Virus record (IMG/VR): IMGVR_UViG_2526164599_000006
Direction: 5' to 3' (one strand)
Length of the DNA: 51,662 nucleotides
Source: a virus
Lineage: Duplodnaviria; Heunggongvirae; Uroviricota; Caudoviricetes
Shown here: positions 4,232 through 49,644 of the stretch, piece by piece
Position numbering within the stretch: the stretch's first letter is position 1
How the letters are laid out: every line of letters begins with the position of its first letter
Made by a program: the position numbers and the translations under genes
The notes under the pieces: generated by a model
Database searches by the model: none
Told to the model about the DNA's origin: nothing
The model's input: the letters and a program-made list of their open reading frames with translations, nothing else

Positions 4232-4467
4232 ATTTTATTTAATAGCTCCCGTTCGTGTTTTCTCTTGTTAATGGCATCTTCAGTAAATACAGGGTTACTG
4301 ATAGTGACACCAATTTCAAAACAACCTTCAGACGTATTAACGTTTGGTAATAACGTTTCCATTATCGCGTCCTCAACAATGAATTTTGTGATGCGGTGCC
4401 TGGTGCCTCCAGGTGACGTTAACCAGTTAACAATTAACGCCGGATACAGAGAATCCACCCATAACAC
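4174..4467 (-). CDS. hypothetical protein
   Basis: 97-aa ORF in early-left operon orientation; no recognisable family. Confidence 0.3.
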   Translation of the reverse strand: MLWVDSLYPALIVNWLTSPGGTRHRITKFIVEDAIMETLLPNVNTSEGCFEIGVTISNPVFTEDAINKRKHERELLNKICILSMLARLRPIQKGCWQ

Positions 4468-4892
4468 TGTTTTTGGTTTTAACTGTTCCGCGTGCGCTCA
4501 GCCGCATTCACCACATCACAAAATTCACTTTAAAAAGGGCGGCAGAGCAGTCACGGAGTAAAACTGATACCGCCAAACGTCACCAGAAAATTGATAACAG
4601 AGGGCGTTGCAGCGGGGTTGTCACTTAAGCGTATGGTCAACCTGACAACCCGGTGTCCTCAACGGGGGAAGGAATAACCCCGCCATACTTACCGCCGCGC
4701 CATTTCGCGGATTGCCACAACCGGAAGCGCACGGTCGACGAAAATTTAACGACAGGCTATCTATGAACCAGCTACCTCGCCGTGCGCTTTCGCGTTATGG
4801 TCTGACTTTTCAGGGAAATATCCTTTCAGTAAACTTGTCAACGCCAAGATTATTGGCCGTTTTTCGCCATTTTTAATGTCCGCTATTGGTCA

Positions 4893-6859
<1,967 letters not shown>

Positions 6860-7057
6860 GAGTGTTCCCTTTGTGGTGTAGGAACCTTAAGGAAACAACA
6901 TGTTGGGTGGAGCGGACAATCCAAATGGTGAATTACTGTCTTATATCATTGGCGCTGACAAACTGTCAGTGCCGGATTCTTATCCGTGTCCGGCGCACGA
7001 CCACACGCTGTCACGAGAGGTCTCCATTCTCAACCAGTAACCTCAATGGAGGATAAA

Positions 7058-7252
7058 ATGTCAGAGCAGGAGTTAAAACTTGGTGCATGTTATTGTGTTC
7101 TCAAGGAGCTGGTACACATGCTTCCATCTACTCAGTATCAACAGTTAGTTGGCAATTTAAATCAGCGAATCGAAGCTATGTTAAAATCTGATGGTTTTAA
7201 TAACGTAGAAACGCTGATGCTAAAAAGATATCTTGATGGATTAATCAGATAA
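7058..7252 (+). CDS. hypothetical small protein
   Basis: 64-aa ORF (MSEQELKLGACYCVLKEL...) with strong RBS GGAGG at 7048..7052; convergent with neighbouring minus-strand gene; adjacent to IS21 end. Confidence 0.4.
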   Translation: MSEQELKLGACYCVLKELVHMLPSTQYQQLVGNLNQRIEAMLKSDGFNNVETLMLKRYLDGLIR

Positions 7253-14895: not shown

Positions 14896-15186
14896 CCTGG
14901 CCTGAAGCATTAACAACGGTAGGAATTGCGATGGCGGTGGCGCTGGTGGTGTATTCGATTTGCCGCTGGGGATAAAAACGGTTTGCGGTAAAGCGAGAGT
15001 TAAGTAGAATTGCTGCGGGTGCTTGAGGCTATCTGCCTCAGGCATGAACACCAAAAGGCAGATAGAGAAAAGCCCCAGTTAACATTACGCGTCCTGCAAG
15101 ACGCTTAACATTAATCTGAGGCCCAATCTATGTCTCACAAATGTAGGTTAGCCTCTTACGTGCCGAAAGGCAAGGAGAAGCAGGCT

Positions 15187-15342
15187 ATGAAGCAGCAAAA
15201 GGCGATGCTAATCGCCCTGATCGTCATCTGTTTAACCGTCATGGTGACGGCACTGGTAACGAGGAAAGACCTCTGCGAGGTACGAATCCGAACCGGCCAG
15301 ACGGAGGTCGCTGTCTTCACAGCTTACGAACCTGAGGAGTAA
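15187..15342 (+). CDS. hokD: Hok/Gef-family small membrane toxin (HokD/RelF-like)
   Basis: 51-aa product MKQQKAMLIALIVICLTVMVTALVTRKDLCEVRIRTGQTEVAVFTAYEPEE; RBS AAGGAG 8 nt upstream; in-frame upstream extension from ATG 15130. Confidence 0.8.
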   Translation: MKQQKAMLIALIVICLTVMVTALVTRKDLCEVRIRTGQTEVAVFTAYEPEE

Positions 15343-16850: not shown

Positions 16851-17225
16851 ATGCGTATAGAGTTTGTTTTGCCTTACCCGCCGACGGTGAACACCTACTG
16901 GCGACGTCGTGGCAGCACATATTTTGTATCAAAAGCCGGTGAGCGTTATCGCCGGGCTGTGGCGCTTATTGTTCGCCAGCAGCGGCTGAAATTAAGCCTG
17001 TCCGGAAGGCTGGCGATAAAGATTATTGCCGAGCCACCGGATAAGCGCCGCCGTGACCTGGACAATATTCTGAAAGCGCCGCTGGATGCGCTGACGCATG
17101 CGGGGTTGCTAATGGACGATGAGCAGTTTGATGAAATCAATATCGTTCGTGCTCAGCCAGTATCTGGTGGACGTCTGGGGGTGAAGATTTACCCCATAAT
17201 GCTTGCAGGGCAGGTCAAAAAATGA
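16851..17225 (+). CDS. rusA: Holliday junction resolvase RusA
   Basis: 124-aa ORF with RusA hallmarks (DxDN core RRRDLDNILKAPLDALT). Confidence 0.85.
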   Translation: MRIEFVLPYPPTVNTYWRRRGSTYFVSKAGERYRRAVALIVRQQRLKLSLSGRLAIKIIAEPPDKRRRDLDNILKAPLDALTHAGLLMDDEQFDEINIVRAQPVSGGRLGVKIYPIMLAGQVKK

Positions 17226-18043
17226 AACTGGAAGATTTACCGAAATACTACTCCCCAAAATCCCCCGGCCTGACTGATGCATCGGCCTCAACGTCGAAAG
17301 ATGCGCTGAGTATCACTGATGTGATGGCCGCGCAGGGCATGACACAGAATCGGGCTGAGATGGGGTTTTCTGCGTTCCTTGGGAAAATGGGCATTAGTAT
17401 GAATGACAGAGAGCGGGCAACAGAATTGCTGACAGAATATGCACTCAGTCGGTGTGATCGCGTGGCGGCGTTAAGAAAACTCCCGGCAGAAATAAAACCG
17501 GTAGTGATGCGCATTATGGCTTCGTACGCTTTTGAGGATTATGCCCGTAGCGCAGCGAGTAAAAAGCAGTGCCCTTGTTGCTATGGGGAAAAATTTATTG
17601 AAAGCGTAGTTTTTACAAACAAGGTCCAGTATCCGGATGGTAAGCCGCCGGTATGGGCAAAGTGTACGAAAGGTGTGTATCCGTCTTACTGGGAAGAATG
17701 GAAAAAAGTCAGGGAGGTGGTAAAAGTTGCCTGTCCGGAGTGTGGCGGAAAGGGTGAGGTTTCCACCGCCTGTAAGGATTGCCGTGGGCGTGGTGTCGCC
17801 ATTCATCGTGAAGAGTCGGTAAAACGTGGTATGCCTGTTATCAGAGACTGCCAGCGTTGTGGTGGTCGTGGCTGTGAAAGACTACCATCAACGGAGGCAT
17901 TTAATGCCATATGCGAAGTGACGAGTGCTATCACGCTTGATACGTGGAAAAAATCAGTGAAACGCTTTTACGATACGTTGGTGGTTCGGTTTGACATTGA
18001 AGAGGCATGGGCGGAGCGGCAGTTAAAGAGGGTAACGCGATAG
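17222..18043 (+). CDS. late-gene antitermination protein Q (QuuQ-like)
   Basis: 273-aa ORF with multiple CxxC zinc-finger motifs; located after rusA and immediately before a promoter/terminator pair and the lysis genes. Confidence 0.65.
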   Translation: MKLEDLPKYYSPKSPGLTDASASTSKDALSITDVMAAQGMTQNRAEMGFSAFLGKMGISMNDRERATELLTEYALSRCDRVAALRKLPAEIKPVVMRIMASYAFEDYARSAASKKQCPCCYGEKFIESVVFTNKVQYPDGKPPVWAKCTKGVYPSYWEEWKKVREVVKVACPECGGKGEVSTACKDCRGRGVAIHREESVKRGMPVIRDCQRCGGRGCERLPSTEAFNAICEVTSAITLDTWKKSVKRFYDTLVVRFDIEEAWAERQLKRVTR

Positions 18044-18048
18044 TGTTG

Positions 18049-18076
18049 TTGATTTTTCCCGAATCTGTGGTAAATT
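18049..18076 (+). promoter_or_regulatory. candidate late promoter pR'
   Basis: TTGATT (18049..18054), 16-bp spacer, extended -10 TGgTAAATT (18068..18076), directly downstream of the Q gene. Confidence 0.4.
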
Positions 18077-18125
18077 TGCTCTAACGATGGGCGTTTTATG
18101 CCTGACGTTAGAAGATTTTTTACAC

Positions 18126-18147
18126 CCCGCCGCCTGGCGGGTTTTTT
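18126..18147 (+). terminator. candidate tR'-like intrinsic terminator
   Basis: Hairpin CCCGCC-GCCT-GGCGGG followed by TTTTTT, about 50 nt downstream of candidate pR'. Confidence 0.45.
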
Positions 18148-18269
18148 ATGACTGAAATCGCGTCAGTACAGTAAACGCGCTGGTGGCGGTGAATACCTGT
18201 CTTTCAGCTTGCTGGCTTTTTCGACAAGAGTTATTGGTGTGTCACGTTAACCGGAAAAGGGAAAAAGAC

Positions 18270-18467
18270 ATGCTAAAACAGCAGGATATGACAGAAACCG
18301 CCAGAGTAGTGTTTAATGAATTAAGCGTTACCGAACCGGCGACAGTCGGGGAGATAGCGCAGAATACTTACCTTTCACGCGAACGCTGCCAGTTAATACT
18401 GGCCCAGCTGGTTATGGCGGGTCTGGCAGACTATCAGTTCGGTTGTTACAGACGCCTTCCGCAGTGA
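18270..18467 (+). CDS. hypothetical small protein
   Basis: 65-aa product from internal Met (MLKQQDMTE...) of the 94-aa ORF; stop codon lies inside a terminator hairpin. Confidence 0.35.
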   Translation: MLKQQDMTETARVVFNELSVTEPATVGEIAQNTYLSRERCQLILAQLVMAGLADYQFGCYRRLPQ

Positions 18468-18477
18468 AGGCTTTTTT
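18454..18477 (+). terminator. intrinsic terminator-like hairpin
   Basis: GCCTTC-CGCAGT-GAAGGC followed by TTTTTTATT. Confidence 0.4.
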
Positions 18478-18617
18478 ATTTGTGGTAAATGGGCGGCTGG
18501 TGGGTGTTAGGGGCACCCACCAGCCATCTGCTCATGCGTTGGGTTCACAAGCAAACCTCAGGCCCACTGCTTTGCGCAAAAGCAGAATGAGCCTATCAGA
18601 GACAGGCTTAATGATCC

Positions 18618-19667
18618 ATGCTTAATACTGTAAAAATATCCAGTTGTGAGTTAATCAACGCCGACTGCCTGGAATTTATCCGGTCGTTACCCGAAAATTC
18701 TGTTGACCTGATAGTCACGGACCCGCCGTACTTTAAAGTGAAGCCTGAGGGCTGGGATAACCAGTGGAAGGGCGACGATGATTACCTGAAGTGGCTGGAC
18801 CAGTGTCTGGCGCAGTTCTGGCGGGTGCTGAAACCTGCCGGAAGTCTTTACCTGTTCTGTGGTCATCGCCTGGCATCTGATATCGAAATCATGATGCGTG
18901 AACGCTTCAGTGTGCTGAACCATATTATCTGGGCGAAGCCGTCCGGACGCTGGAACGGATGCAACAAGGAAAGCCTGCGGGCGTATTTCCCCGCCACAGA
19001 GCGCATTCTGTTCGCGGAACATTATCAGGGGCCGTATCGTCCGAAAGATGCCGGGTATGCGGCGAAGGGCAGTGCACTGAAACAGCATGTGATGGCCCCG
19101 CTGATTTCTTACTTTCGTGATGCGCGCGTGGCCCTGGGGATAACGGCAAAACAGATTGCAGATGCCACAGGAAAGAAAAACATGGTGTCGCACTGGTTCA
19201 GTGCCAGTCAGTGGCAGCTACCGAACGAAAGCGATTATCTGAAATTACAGTCGCTGTTTGCCCGGGTGGCAGAAGAGAAACATCAGCGCGGTGAACTGGA
19301 AAAGCCCCACCACCAGCTGGTGGATACGTATACGTCACTGAACCGGCAGTATGTGGAGCTGCAGAGTGAATATAAGCATCTGCGGCGGTATTTTGGTGTG
19401 ACGGCGCAGGTGCCGTACACGGATGTGTGGACACATAAACCGGTGCAGTTCTATCCCGGGAAACATCCGTGCGAAAAACCGGCAGAAATGCTGCAGCAGA
19501 TAATCAGCGCAAGCAGTCGTCCGGGTGACCTGGTTGCAGATTTTTTTATGGGCTCAGGTTCAACGGTAAAAGCTGCACTGGCGCTCGGGCGTCGTGCGAT
19601 TGGCGTTGAACTGGAGACCGGACGTTTTGAGCAGACAGTCAGGGAAGTTCAGGATTTAATCGTTTGA
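18618..19667 (+). CDS. DNA N6-adenine methyltransferase (orphan, phage-encoded)
   Basis: 349-aa ORF with DPPY catalytic motif (LIVTDPPYF) near the N-terminus and SAM-binding motif (DFFMGSGST) near the C-terminus. Confidence 0.8.
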   Translation: MLNTVKISSCELINADCLEFIRSLPENSVDLIVTDPPYFKVKPEGWDNQWKGDDDYLKWLDQCLAQFWRVLKPAGSLYLFCGHRLASDIEIMMRERFSVLNHIIWAKPSGRWNGCNKESLRAYFPATERILFAEHYQGPYRPKDAGYAAKGSALKQHVMAPLISYFRDARVALGITAKQIADATGKKNMVSHWFSASQWQLPNESDYLKLQSLFARVAEEKHQRGELEKPHHQLVDTYTSLNRQYVELQSEYKHLRRYFGVTAQVPYTDVWTHKPVQFYPGKHPCEKPAEMLQQIISASSRPGDLVADFFMGSGSTVKAALALGRRAIGVELETGRFEQTVREVQDLIV

Positions 19668-19716
19668 AACGGATGAGATTGCAGAATTAATTACGCACCA
19701 TTATTATTCTGCTTCC

Positions 19717-19792
19717 GGCCCTTTAGCTCAGTGGTGAGAGCGAGCGACTCATAATCGCCAGGTCGCTGGTTCAAATCCAGCAAGGGCCACCA
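19717..19792 (+). tRNA. ileZ: tRNA with CAU anticodon, tRNA-Ile2 (lysidine)-like
   Basis: 76-nt cloverleaf GGCCCTT...AAGGGCCACCA; anticodon loop CTCATAA; close to remembered E. coli ileX. Confidence 0.8.
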
Positions 19793-19892
19793 TCACAAAC
19801 CGCCATTAGCTTATCAGGAAGAGCAGACGACACGATAACAGGGTTGTTGGTGCGGGGGCGGGTCCCCGATGGCGGTCCATTATCGGTATTCA

Positions 19893-19969
19893 GCGTTGTT
19901 AGCTCAGCCGGACAGAGCAATTGCCTTCTAAGCAATCGGTCACTGGTTCGAATCCAGTACAGCGCGCCA
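19893..19969 (+). tRNA. argO: tRNA-Arg (anticodon UCU)
   Basis: 77-nt cloverleaf GCGTTGT...ACAGCGCGCCA; anticodon loop CTTCTAA; TTCGAATCC T-loop. Confidence 0.8.
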
Positions 19970-20076
19970 TATTCATTCTTCCAGATTCCTTTCGGCAGAG
20001 CCTTATACTGAAATATACCTGGCTCAGGATATTGTTGAAAATATTATATGTTTGTCAAAAATAAAAGTTCTGTTAA

Positions 20077-20433
20077 GTGTTGATTGAGTGTTTGTTATAC
20101 GGTCTAATGGTTTTTTCAGCATTAAATATTTATCATTCATATGGTGTGGGTAGAGTGAATATTGATGAGGCGTCGGGGTGTTTCATCCTTAGGCAGCGTA
20201 TTGATATAGTCAATGCAGAACGAGCAAAGGCCTTCAGCCGTTTGACAGTTTTGTTCTGTACTCCTGATCGTCTTTCGGGAAGAGACGTTATTATTCTGAA
20301 TAGTGATGCTATACAGAGGGTTTGCGATGAGTTCATGGTGGCTAATTCAGAATTATTTGCTCTTGTTCAGGAGTACAACAGAATAGCCAGGACCTGTGGT
20401 ATGGATGAACTTCGGATTACTCATCTGGGGTAG
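20077..20433 (+). CDS. hypothetical protein in AT-rich cargo DNA
   Basis: 118-aa ORF (track start is GTG); no clear RBS; no recognisable family. Confidence 0.25.
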   Translation: MLIECLLYGLMVFSALNIYHSYGVGRVNIDEASGCFILRQRIDIVNAERAKAFSRLTVLFCTPDRLSGRDVIILNSDAIQRVCDEFMVANSELFALVQEYNRIARTCGMDELRITHLG

Positions 20434-20889
20434 ATACATATCTGGATTATCACCGGTTACGGTAAAAAGTGATTGCTTACTGTTTTTGTGAATGGCATTG
20501 CAGCAGCCGGATAATGTCAGTGCTGGCTGACGGTGTGCTGGTGGCGGGTGTGGTGGTTGCTGCTTTCCCGTTGCTGAAAAAGAAAACGCCAGACTGTTAG
20601 CCGGGTATCAGTTAGCGGGAGAAATTTTTAAATACTTCACAATTCAGGCGGTTGACTGTTGTCTGGTTTGCGGGGAGTTTGTTAAAAGAAACTGGCATGG
20701 TGAATCCCCCTGTGCGGAGGGGCAATCAGCGAGTAGGTATATGGGATAATCGCGGATTCAGGTGCTGGTACTGAATTCACCGGGAGGCACCCGGCACCAT
20801 GCAATGGCACATAGCGCCACTCTCCAGCCCCTCTCCGGAGGGGCTGTTTATATTGATTTTGTCAGATGTGAGTAAACTCCTTATGGACT

Positions 20890-21216
20890 TTATTGTTTTA
20901 GCCCATAAGGACATATTTGCAGAGTGCAACGGTTATTAAAGCATTCATTCAATACGTTATCTGTATTTGTAGGGCATTCCTGGCTGTTTTTGATTAAATT
21001 CCAGAATGTTTTATTGAATGGTACTACGTTGTAAATGGTTACAGGTAGCACTTTGTTATTGAGCATGATGCCTGTGTGAGTCAGTGTAAATATACTTTCA
21101 GGAGGTAAGAAAGCATCCGATTGATACCAGATTATTAATTTTATTTTACTCCATATGACTGAAAAAGATATTCCGCATGATGGCTGGATAACTGTATCAA
21201 TCACAATCCACTTCAT
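20890..21216 (-). CDS. hypothetical Cys-rich protein in AT-rich cargo DNA
   Basis: 108-aa ORF with RBS AGGA 6 nt upstream of ATG; C-terminus has five cysteines ([26 protein letters not shown]). Confidence 0.3.
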
Positions 21217-21476
21217 TTAGTTTCCTTGTTTATGCCTTGCTGGTGATGTTCTGAAAAGTATAAATGATATTTTTGATTGTAAACCATAGAGCAGAATTAT
21301 TTTTCTGATGTTGTTTATTGTTTATTTAAATGCAGGGTGGTTTATATCTCGTCTTGTAGTTTATCCATGCATATCTGCTTGATGATGAGGTTTTTAATTA
21401 AGGTATGGTTTTGTGTTTTTTCTGTATTACATGTCAGGTATTTTAAAGAATCATTTTTCAGATGGTGGAAAGAACC

Positions 21477-23330
21477 ATGGCATTTAAACACTATGATGTT
21501 GTCAGGGCGGCGTCGCCGTCAGATCTTGCGGAAAAGCTGACACATAAACTGAAAGAGGGCTGGCAGCCGTTTGGTAGTCCGGTGGCCATAACCCCTTATA
21601 CCCTGATGCAGGCGATTGCAGCAGAAGGTGATGTGGTCGTCAGTGGTGCAACTGAGCCGGAGTGGTACTACGTCATCGTACTGGCCGGGCAGTCCAATGC
21701 CATGGCTTACGGTGAAGGGCTTCCGCTTCCGGATTCATACGATGCGCCCCATCCGCGCATTAAGCAACTGGCCCGTCGTAACACAGTGACTCCCGGTGGT
21801 GAAGTATGCGTATTTAACGACATCATTCCTGCTGACCATTGTCTGCATGATGTTCAGGATATGAGTACGATTAACCATCCCCGGGCTGACCTGAGCAAAG
21901 GGCAGTACGGCTGTGTCGGACAGGGCTTACATATTGCCAAAAAACTGCTTCCGTATATCCCTAATAACGCGGGGATCCTGCTGGTACCATGCTGTCGTGG
22001 TGGTTCGGCATTCACCCAGGGCACGGAGGGGACATTCAGCGAGTCCACGGGGGCCAGTCAGGATTCGGCTCGCTGGGGAGTGGGTAAGCCGTTATATCAG
22101 GATCTGCTTTTCCGCACGAAGGCAGCATTGCAGAAAAACCCGAAAAACGTTTTGCTGGCGATATGCTGGATGCAGGGGGAATTCGATATGACGAATGCCA
22201 GTTACGCCCAGCAGCCAGCAGCATTTCTTGCAATGGTACAGCAGTTCCGTGCTGACCTTGCCGGGCTGGCGGCGCAGTGTCACGGTGGAAGTCCGGCATC
22301 AGTCCCCTGGATTTGTGGCGACACGACATACGCGTGGAAACAAGAACACGGTACGCAATATGAAGTGGTATATGGTGCATATAAAGGTAAAGAATCCCAG
22401 CAGATTTATTTTGTTCCCTTTATGACCGATGGTAGCGGAGTTAATACACCGACAAACAACCCGTCAGAAGATCCTGATATTGTCGGGTCTGGTTATTACG
22501 GTTCGGCATCCCGAACGAACAAAAACTGGGTATCATCAAATCGCCCGACGCATTTCAGCTCATGGGCGCGTCGTGGCATTATTCCCGATCGTATGGCAAC
22601 CGCTATTCTGAACGCAGCCGGGCGCACCTCAGCTTTCATCAGTGGTAAGGCACCGGAAATCAAACCCTCGCCCGGCGGCAACACGCCATCGGGGCCGTCT
22701 GAAGATGCATCCGTACGCACAATCTCCCTGTTGCCGACAGCCGGAGAGGCTGCTGCGCAGGGCTGGACCATTAAGGACGGCGGAATTCAGTTGTCGGGTG
22801 GTGTATTTAAGATCGCCAAGCAGAGCAATAAAACCTGGTCCCTGATGCATCCGGTGGATGACGCAGTCTCCCTGCTGACACGGGGTGGCAGACTGAGCTG
22901 TAAGTTTCGACTGTCAGGCGCACTGACCAACAACCAGTTCGGCCTGGGAATTTATCTGTATACCGATGTAGCGTTACCTGACGTCGTGGCGATGACCGGG
23001 ACTGGTAACCCGTTCCTGATGTCGTTCTTCACCCAGACCACAGACGGCAAACTGAATCTGATGCATCACAAGAAAGCAGGAAACACAAAGTTGGGCGAGT
23101 TCGGGAATTACAGTAATGACTGGCAGACGCTGGAACTGGTGTTCACCGCCGGCAGTGCCACGGTTACTCCGAAACTGAATGGAGTGGCTGGCCCGGCATT
23201 CCAGGTCATAAAAGACAGTCTGACACTGGGGCTGAATGCGCTGACGCTGACGGATATTACCAAAAATGCAGCGTATGGCGTTGAGATAGAAAGTCTGGTG
23301 CTGGAGATAAATGCACCGGCATCATCATAA
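21477..23330 (+). CDS. nanS-p: NanS-p-like sialate O-acetylesterase (DUF1737 N-terminus plus SASA domain)
   Basis: ORF with GQSN motif (VLAGQSNAMAYG) and DUF1737-like N-terminus (MAFKHYDVVRAASP); track start 21462, ATG 21477 preferred. Confidence 0.75.
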   Translation: MAFKHYDVVRAASPSDLAEKLTHKLKEGWQPFGSPVAITPYTLMQAIAAEGDVVVSGATEPEWYYVIVLAGQSNAMAYGEGLPLPDSYDAPHPRIKQLARRNTVTPGGEVCVFNDIIPADHCLHDVQDMSTINHPRADLSKGQYGCVGQGLHIAKKLLPYIPNNAGILLVPCCRGGSAFTQGTEGTFSESTGASQDSARWGVGKPLYQDLLFRTKAALQKNPKNVLLAICWMQGEFDMTNASYAQQPAAFLAMVQQFRADLAGLAAQCHGGSPASVPWICGDTTYAWKQEHGTQYEVVYGAYKGKESQQIYFVPFMTDGSGVNTPTNNPSEDPDIVGSGYYGSASRTNKNWVSSNRPTHFSSWARRGIIPDRMATAILNAAGRTSAFISGKAPEIKPSPGGNTPSGPSEDASVRTISLLPTAGEAAAQGWTIKDGGIQLSGGVFKIAKQSNKTWSLMHPVDDAVSLLTRGGRLSCKFRLSGALTNNQFGLGIYLYTDVALPDVVAMTGTGNPFLMSFFTQTTDGKLNLMHHKKAGNTKLGEFGNYSNDWQTLELVFTAGSATVTPKLNGVAGPAFQVIKDSLTLGLNALTLTDITKNAAYGVEIESLVLEINAPASS

Positions 23331-49060: not shown

Positions 49061-49644
49061 TGGCATTCAGAATGAGTGAACAAGCACGGACCATAAAAAT
49101 TTATAATCTGCTGGCCGGAACTAATGAATTTATTGGTGAAGGTGACGCATATATTCCGCCTCATACAGGTCTGCCAGCAAACAGTACCGATATTGCACCA
49201 CCAGATATTCCTGCTGGCTTTGTGGCTGTTTTCAACAGTGATGAGGCATCGTGGCATCTCGTTGAAGACCATCGGGGAAAAACGGTTTATGACGTAGCGT
49301 CAGGGGACGAGTTATTTATTTCTGAACTCGGTCCGTTACCGGAAAATGTTACCTGGTTATCGCCGGAAGGGGAGTTTCAGAAGTGGAACGGCACAGCCTG
49401 GGTGAAGGATACGGAAGCAGAAAAAATGTTCCGGATCCGGGAGGCGGAAGAAACAAAAAACAACCTGATGCAGGTAGCCAGTGAGCATATTGCGCCGCTT
49501 CAGGATGCTGCAGATCTGGAAATTGCAACGGAGGAAGAAACCTCATTGCTGGAAGCCTGGAAAAAGTATCGGGTGTTGCTGAACCGTGTTGATACATCAA
49601 CTGCACCTGATATTGAGTGGCCTACGAACCCTGTCAGGGAGTAA
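49060..49644 (+). CDS. tfa: tail fibre assembly protein Tfa
   Basis: 194-aa ORF overlapping stf stop; Tfa-like N- and C-termini. Confidence 0.85.

Follow-up and report, generated by a model that had tools for sequence, protein, structure and literature searches.

Introduction

The late-region architecture of Shiga toxin (Stx) phages has been described previously (PMC10462455). In Stx2_EH1910 (accession LC567834; locus L001 of our set) and other phages of the 933W type, the Q-to-S region has the order ileZ–argN–argO–stx2AB–nanS-p, in which three transfer RNA (tRNA) genes precede the toxin operon. The prophage small RNA (sRNA) STnc100 is found 75 nucleotides (nt) downstream of the stx2 operon (PMC12370729). 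In the Stx phages of strain Sakai the primary start site driving these tRNAs has been mapped, and short transcripts from the late promoter pR′ act as regulatory RNAs in Stx phages (StxS; PMC7547250). Expression of nanS-p rises on induction in Stx-producing Escherichia coli (STEC; PMC10462455). A further relevant protein is the DNA methyltransferase M.EcoGII, which methylates adenine in any sequence context, is deleterious if constitutive and is not expressed in the lysogen (PMC5778455). Here, we compare with these systems the block at positions 17222..23330 of a 51,662-nt stretch of Caudoviricetes DNA (IMG/VR record IMGVR_UViG_2526164599_000006), a prophage sequence that is referred to below in its entirety as the window.

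Comparison with Stx phages

The block at 17222..23330 is very probably a standard late-region accessory block of the lambdoid Stx-phage lineage, found here in a prophage that is free of toxin genes and has head and tail genes like those of lambda. A megablast search against 50,697 phage records gave 312 records with a match, mainly of Stx2-converting phages. Positions 17001..19977 are 93.5% identical over 2983 base pairs (bp) to the Stx2a phage Stx2_EH1910, and this matched stretch spans rusA, the antiterminator gene Q, a small open reading frame (ORF), a methylase gene and the tRNA genes. The similarity is lost 8 nt past argO and is recovered at 20637 with 72% identity, continuing through STnc100, iraM and nanS-p. 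A search with tblastn using Stx2A and Stx2B as queries detected no stx gene in the 51.6-kb window, and the prophage does not count as an Stx-converting phage. The first-pass annotation had described an Stx-type late region in an stx-negative prophage; given the level of identity from Q to argO and the return of synteny at STnc100, iraM and nanS-p, this label is correct. The individual parts that it named (Q, pR′, a terminator, a small ORF, a methylase, two tRNAs and an esterase) are all found where it had placed them.

The gene order is the same as that of the Stx2_EH1910 or 933W-type region, and past the cargo slot both Stx2_EH1910 and the window carry STnc100, an antisense iraM and nanS-p. 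The window differs in being without stx2AB, in having argN as a pseudogene and in its lambda-like virion genes, and the two NanS-p proteins are only about 59% identical. The Stx2e phage phiP27 has the same small ORF and methylase (87% DNA identity) but, unlike the window, it carries stx2e, its Q is of another kind and nanS-p is absent. The module formed by the small ORF and the methylase gene (about 18150..19677) is missing in many relatives, in which the terminator tR′ directly abuts the tRNA promoter. The presence or absence of this module and the combinations of cassettes in related loci thus indicate that the region is a mosaic of exchangeable modules.

Among 5426 complete E. coli genomes, to which all of the complete-genome counts given here refer, 558 cover the 6.1-kb block to at least 80%, with O25b:H4/ST131 strains among them. 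In strain B19374 a 99% identical 6.1-kb block resides in a lambda-like prophage adjoining ompW. The cluster is ordinary: its architecture is already known for Stx phages, it is widespread among toxin-free prophages and its content is not unexpected to a phage specialist. Only mildly new are the explicit identification of the argN relic, together with its prevalence, and the assignment of the methylase to the M.EcoGII type.

The features of the block are as follows. Those that add to the earlier description are the tRNA promoter and, between argO and the esterase gene, two small ORFs, STnc100 and an iraM paralogue.

17222..18043, plus strand: antiterminator Q of the lambda-Q type (QuuQ-like), 273 residues (PF03589 Antiterm, E 6e-51; phrog_127, E 1e-110)
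18049..18088, plus strand: putative late promoter pR′ (alignment with lambda pR′, NC_001416)
18126..18147, plus strand: terminator tR′, a 6-bp all-GC stem (hairpin 18126..18141) followed by T6 (terminator scan)
18270..18467, plus strand: small ORF, 65 residues (phrog_331, E 7e-37)
18618..19667, plus strand: orphan beta-class N6-adenine DNA methyltransferase, M.EcoGII type, 349 residues (PF01555 N6_N4_Mtase, E 2e-44, residues 29–340)
19679..19707, plus strand: candidate sigma-70 promoter of the tRNA operon (TTGCAG, 17 nt, TATTAT), stopping 9 nt short of the 5′ end of the tRNA
19717..19792, plus strand: tRNA-Ile2-type gene with anticodon CAU, the ileZ of Stx phages (ARAGORN; Rfam tRNA, 72.5 bits)
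19800..19879, plus strand: argN pseudogene, tRNA-Arg(UCG) (alignment with argN of Stx2_EH1910 and with phiP27)
19893..19969, plus strand: argO, tRNA-Arg(UCU) (ARAGORN; Rfam tRNA, 68.0 bits)
19978..20636, plus strand: AT-rich cargo cassette, 659 bp, at the stx position (blastn breakpoints against Stx2_EH1910)
20107..20433, plus strand: ORF108 (phrog_2873, E 2e-70)
20469..20600, plus strand: TciB-like/DUF3927 ORF, 43 residues (PHROG match)
20666..20855, plus strand: prophage sRNA STnc100 (Rfam RF02076 over the full model length, 132.4 bits; gathering score 47)
20890..21216, minus strand: paralogue of iraM, which encodes an RpoS-stabilizing anti-adaptor (NCBIfam NF007393, 159.6 bits; cutoff 121)
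21477..23330, plus strand: NanS-p-type sialate O-acetylesterase (DUF1737, SASA/SGNH and DUF6645 in Pfam; C-terminal lectin-like domain)

Late transcription and the tRNA genes

Residues 1–113 and 182–273 of Q align with lambda Q (PDB code 7ubm, E 5e-39), and the sequences CKDCRGRG and CQRCGGRG fall on the lambda Cys4 zinc-finger motifs CRDC...CGRC. Relative to lambda Q, the protein has an insert of about 68 residues (114–181, encoded by 17561..17764) with CPCC and CPECGGKG motifs, and Q as a whole gives a sub-threshold Pfam match to the DnaJ CXXCXGXG family. These motifs of the insert point to a second, DnaJ-type zinc site.

The putative pR′ follows Q directly and consists of a −35 element TTGATT (18049..18054) and a TG-extended −10 element TAAATT (18071..18076), with a predicted start at 18083. 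The element AACGAT at 18083..18088 corresponds to the sigma-dependent pause signal of lambda, at +1 to +6. Conserved with respect to lambda pR′ is GGTAAATTTG...AACGATGGG, which holds both TAAATT and AACGAT; by analogy with lambda, transcription would start at 18083 and the polymerase would pause at AACGAT. The terminator tR′ is kept in Stx2_EH1910, and the terminated pR′ transcript is predicted to be ∼65 nt in length (18083 to about 18147), compared with roughly 190 nt for that of lambda as judged from alignment spacing. A generic promoter scan reported neither pR′ nor the tRNA promoter because each matches only eight of the 12 hexamer positions; both assignments draw on homology and conservation.

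ARAGORN called two tRNAs and no others in the 51.6-kb window. Both had been predicted previously and both pass the covariance-model scan, with 72.5 and 68.0 bits against the Rfam tRNA gathering score of 29. The CAU gene is identical to K-12 ileX at 68 of 76 positions (89%), one of the differences being a compensated 6:67 pair. Its acceptor stem, GGCCC.../...GGGCC, contains C4:G69 and C5:G68, which are the determinants by which TilS (lysidine synthetase) separates tRNA-Ile2 from tRNA-Met, and an identical gene is named tRNA-Ile by the Prokaryotic Genome Annotation Pipeline (PGAP). By these features the gene is a tRNA-Ile2, not a tRNA-Met, and should be annotated accordingly.

In loci L004–L123, the TATTAT element and its spacing to the tRNA are invariant in all 30 of the distinct upstream variants, unrelated contexts included, and a TTG located 17 nt upstream of TATTAT is present in nearly all of them. 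Besides being reached by late read-through, the tRNA operon is thus probably served by a promoter of its own.

The arrangement of these parts is consistent with the following scheme. In the lysogen, RNA polymerase would start at pR′ (about 18083) and stop at tR′ (18126..18147), yielding only the ∼65-nt RNA, and the tRNA operon would probably also be transcribed from its own promoter at 19679..19707. On induction, Q would bind at pR′ and modify the polymerase paused at AACGAT, as it does in lambda. The modified polymerase would then pass tR′, the hairpin at the end of the small ORF and the terminator of STnc100, so that a single late transcript would begin with the small ORF and run on through the methylase, tRNAs and cargo cassette, then STnc100 and nanS-p, and finally the lysis and the structural genes. 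If it acts as its homologues do, the M.EcoGII-type methylase would place N6-methyladenine (m6A) on replicating phage DNA without sequence preference, and this modification should shield the progeny from restriction in the next host. The tRNA-Ile2(CAU) and tRNA-Arg(UCU) would supply AUA and AGA/AGG decoding, and NanS-p, again judging from its homologues, would strip 9-O-acetyl groups from mucin sialic acids and thereby feed sibling cells. Sequence and homology show the identities of the parts, the exchange of the cassette at the stx slot, the decay of argN and the conservation of the promoter and pause elements.

A role of the tRNAs in late decoding accords with the codon usage of the window, in which, per 1000 codons of a crude ORF set, ATA occurs 8.0 times, AGA 6.9 times, AGG 4.8 times, CGA 3.8 times and CGG 13.4 times. 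The E. coli averages per 1000 are roughly 4 for ATA, 2 for AGA and 1 for AGG; against these approximate values an enrichment of the window in ATA, AGA and AGG is plausible.

Several points weigh against this scheme. Its start sites, pause and read-through are all carried over from lambda and the Stx phages, and the codon comparison combines a crude ORF set with approximate reference values. CGG is frequent in the window, yet argN, the tRNA gene whose product could read this codon, has been lost. The stretch of pR′ between the −35 and −10 elements, which is the presumed Q-binding element, differs from that of lambda, as expected for a Q of other DNA specificity. Finally, about 5% of the methylase residues are not those of M.EcoGII, and several of these changes lie within residues 148–262.

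It has also to be considered whether the tRNAs and the AT-rich cassette benefit the lysogen as morons with promoters of their own, acting mainly in the host cell and not in late translation. The candidate promoter just upstream of ileZ is kept in every context and a start site has been mapped in Sakai lysogens (PMC7547250). A promoter-like site is present at 20035..20062 upstream of ORF108, the GC content is low (0.38–0.46 in the cassette and 0.31–0.46 across 19970..21476) and the iraM paralogue is antisense to late transcription in a stretch of 31–34% GC. However, promoters of this kind are compatible with Q-dependent read-through, the late transcript includes the tRNAs, the genes of the window are rich in AUA, AGA and AGG, and promoter-like sites are no more frequent here than in shuffled sequence. 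We regard a primarily lysogenic role as possible but rather unlikely, and favour the scheme given above.

The adenine methyltransferase and the small ORF

The methylase shows the motif order of the beta class, with DPPY at residues 35–38 (VTDPPYF, 33–39) and FMGSG at residues 310–314 (FFMGSGST, 309–316). It is an orphan because its neighbours are the 65-residue ORF and the tRNA genes, and PADLOC returned methyltransferase models only, with no nuclease partner at the methylase. The proposal of an orphan N6-adenine methyltransferase thus stands, with both the catalytic DPPY motif and the FxGxG motif for SAM binding kept. Comparison with the M.EcoGII sequence taken from the supplement to PMC11551740 gave 330 identical residues out of 350 (∼94%); as the text of this supplement carries machine-reading errors, the actual figure is probably a little higher. 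With the methylase of phage 1720a-02, which has been named as a very similar M.EcoGII homologue (PMC5778455), the protein shares 95% identity.

M.EcoGII from E. coli O104:H4 C227-11 and the window methylase are both 349 residues in length, prophage-borne and orphan, and they share the same motif order, in which DPPY is followed by the target-recognition domain and then by FxGxG. About 20 substitutions separate the two proteins. The window methylase is presumed to methylate adenine non-specifically. Since enzymes of this type are non-specific and silent in lysogens, an extra adenine motif, which had been anticipated in lysogen methylomes, would most likely not be seen. In annotation, the protein would be better labelled M.EcoGII-like (non-specific and expressed late) than a motif-specific orphan.

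A sequence-specific enzyme unlike M.EcoGII would be expected to add one new adenine motif to the methylome of the lysogen or virion. Some weight is lent to this idea by the roughly 20 residues that differ from M.EcoGII, of which several, or most, are in the predicted target-recognition and linker region (148–262). However, M.EcoGI and M.EcoGII differ at 16 of 349 residues and are both non-specific (PMC5778455), homologues of about 93% similarity have been classed as non-specific and gave no signal in lysogen methylomes (PMC6602927), and part of the differences counted against M.EcoGII are machine-reading errors in the supplement. Sequence specificity is accordingly very unlikely, and a non-specific activity of the M.EcoGII type is preferred.

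The small ORF upstream of the methylase gave a weak, sub-threshold Pfam match to the TrmB winged helix (E 0.002), making a winged-helix protein possible. A terminator-like hairpin is located at its end (18454..18477; terminator scan), and in related loci the ORF occurs with or without the methylase. The 9-mer GTGGTAAAT occurs at 18067..18075, in overlap with the −10 region of pR′, and again at 18483..18491, just past the terminator of the small ORF and upstream of the methylase gene; the repeat may mark a second weak promoter or a recombination scar.

The argN relic

The two tRNA genes of the window are separated by 100 bp (19793..19892), a gap for which an origin as the remnant of a third tRNA gene had been put forward on first inspection. 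Alignment with argN of Stx2_EH1910 bears this out. In that phage ileZ is followed by 9 nt, argN (77 nt, anticodon UCG, 54.8 bits), 13 nt and argO, giving a sum of 99 nt compared with 100 nt in the window. Positions 19800..19879 align with argN over acceptor stem, D arm, the CCA-bearing 3′ end and both spacers. In the anticodon arm, about 23 nt of argN have been swapped for an unrelated 28 nt, and the T loop reads GCGGGU in place of the UUCGAGU of Stx2_EH1910. No tRNA was called in the relic by ARAGORN, including at a relaxed threshold, or by the Rfam tRNA model at E ≤ 10 in a 106-nt search. The relic has neither a tRNA score, a 7-nt UCG anticodon loop nor a canonical T loop and is therefore filed as a pseudogene.

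An intermediate is provided by phiP27, which has the same anticodon-arm replacement as the window but a canonical T loop and scores 26.4 bits, just under the gathering score; its annotation lists ileZ and argO only. The tRNA-model scores thus form a stepwise decay series, from 54.8 bits in Stx2_EH1910 through 26.4 bits in phiP27 to no match in the window. Judged by its sequence, argN, the middle tRNA gene, is decayed to a nonfunctional relic.

The relic class is present in 33 of the 120 IMG/VR loci that contain ileZ...argO, and the exact allele of the window is the commonest single allele (18 copies). Other variants show uncompensated stem substitutions and poly-G expansions in the T arm, ranging from 5 to 15 G, and the allele of locus L059 combines an intact anticodon arm with a degenerate T loop. 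The class has six variable sites, at which the changes are uncompensated; with so few sites, covariation is not usable for assessing the structure of the relic. Nucleotide diversity within the class is 0.011 for the relic and 0.023 for argO. In the loci with a callable argN (L004–L123), the corresponding values are 0.087 for argN (39 of 97 sites vary), 0.032 for argO and 0.001 for ileZ, and one callable argN allele has the anticodon UCU in place of UCG.

A diagnostic 61-nt core of the relic was found in 1563 complete E. coli genomes (about 29%), in 916 of them at an identity of at least 99%; among the matches listed, no annotated feature underlies the core. The 100-bp spacer is thus an unannotated argN pseudogene in more than 1500 complete E. 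coli genomes. In the collection of papers searched, ileZ, argN and argO named together gave no match. In the IMG/VR sample, stx2 is present in none of the 33 relic loci, and all 14 of the stx2 loci, two GenBank phages included, have an intact argN. As a rule, the statement that the relic never co-occurs with stx is ruled out by phiP27, in which the anticodon-arm replacement is found together with stx2e.

The relic might be retained as a tRNA-like RNA, either a structured spacer guiding RNase P or RNase E in the processing of the ileZ–argO precursor, or a decoy or sRNA. Its predicted fold still resembles a cloverleaf: it has an acceptor stem of 8 bp, a D arm and an encoded CCA, while a 7-bp hairpin closed by a 3-nt loop stands where the anticodon arm should be and the T loop has 6 nt. 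Its length equals that of a tRNA plus spacers, which preserves the spacing of the operon, the core is frequent and often nearly identical among the complete genomes, and its diversity is not above that of argO within the class. However, in stability the fold does not exceed shuffled sequence (z = −1.25), the variants show uncompensated stem changes and poly-G slippage, the stepwise fall of the tRNA-model scores is as expected for decay and the high identity is explicable by recent horizontal spread of prophages. The tRNA operon appears, moreover, to be truncated in some related phages, such as vB_EcoS-640R1 (locus L002). Retention of this kind is highly improbable, and simple decay of argN is preferred. 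A related notion is that of a selected RNA that helps the flanking tRNAs to be processed, as a scaffold, or draws off factors that bind or cleave tRNAs, as a decoy. It is suggested because the acceptor stem, D arm and CCA are kept while decoding is lost and because about 29% of the genomes carry the relic, and it is likewise highly improbable.

In vB_EcoS-640R1 ileZ alone is recognized by the Rfam tRNA model, and the match to the window breaks off within argO, suggesting a truncated argO in this phage.

The cargo slot and iraM

The break in similarity after argO and its return at 20637 show that 19978..20636 replaces the stx2AB segment, the 659-bp cassette taking the place of 1368 bp with stx2AB (5757..7124 of locus L001, Stx2_EH1910). 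This sequence comparison marks the interval from argO to STnc100 as a position at which cargo is exchangeable. The slot can hold stx or other small genes, and prophages of this kind are common in non-STEC lineages such as ST131.

ORF108 has homologues only in E. coli and Shigella, all unnamed, and gave no sequence match in Pfam, NCBIfam, PADLOC or the PDB. Its AlphaFold model, with a pLDDT of 75, is a helical hairpin with small strands, and a Foldseek search of this model against the PDB gave nothing below E 0.08. Homologues of the other clade begin with MNIDE, which corresponds to a GTG at about 20155 in the window, so the true start of ORF108 may be at about 20155. In related loci, ORF108 and the TciB-like ORF usually accompany the relic allele, but they are also found with an intact argN.

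STnc100 forms the right border of the slot and has its own terminator at 20825..20846. It occupies the same place downstream of stx2B in Stx2_EH1910, where it scores 154 bits. In vB_EcoS-640R1 two tandem copies of STnc100 are present (4392..4585 and 4861..5049). The iraM gene is annotated in Stx2_EH1910 and in a further locus, L003.

The NanS-p-type esterase

The esterase matches NanS (PDB code 3pt5, E 3e-122) and the C-terminal domain of NanS-p (PDB code 6yp6, E 1e-29). It shares with the NanS-p proteins of Stx prophages, such as those of 933W and phi24B (vb_24B_21, PDB code 6yp6), the three-domain architecture, the GQSN block, which is present in its translation, and a location just upstream of the holin gene. 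The window protein is 617 residues in length, compared with 636–657 residues in Stx-prophage NanS-p. Its SGNH block IV reads RPTH (22539..22550), a variant that has been reported in only one Stx2a prophage, the others having RSSH or RASH (PMC10462455).

Other RNA features

Two further Rfam candidates, P26 (18494..18558, minus strand, E 0.1) and Plastid-ycf2 on the reverse strand of a tRNA, were dismissed as they fall under the gathering score. Elsewhere in the prophage, Rfam identified DicF at 4537..4588 on the minus strand (76.7 bits), the antitoxin RNA sok from a hok/sok locus at 15017..15192 on the plus strand (121.7 bits) and the IS009 RNA at 49403..49601 on the plus strand (223.8 bits).

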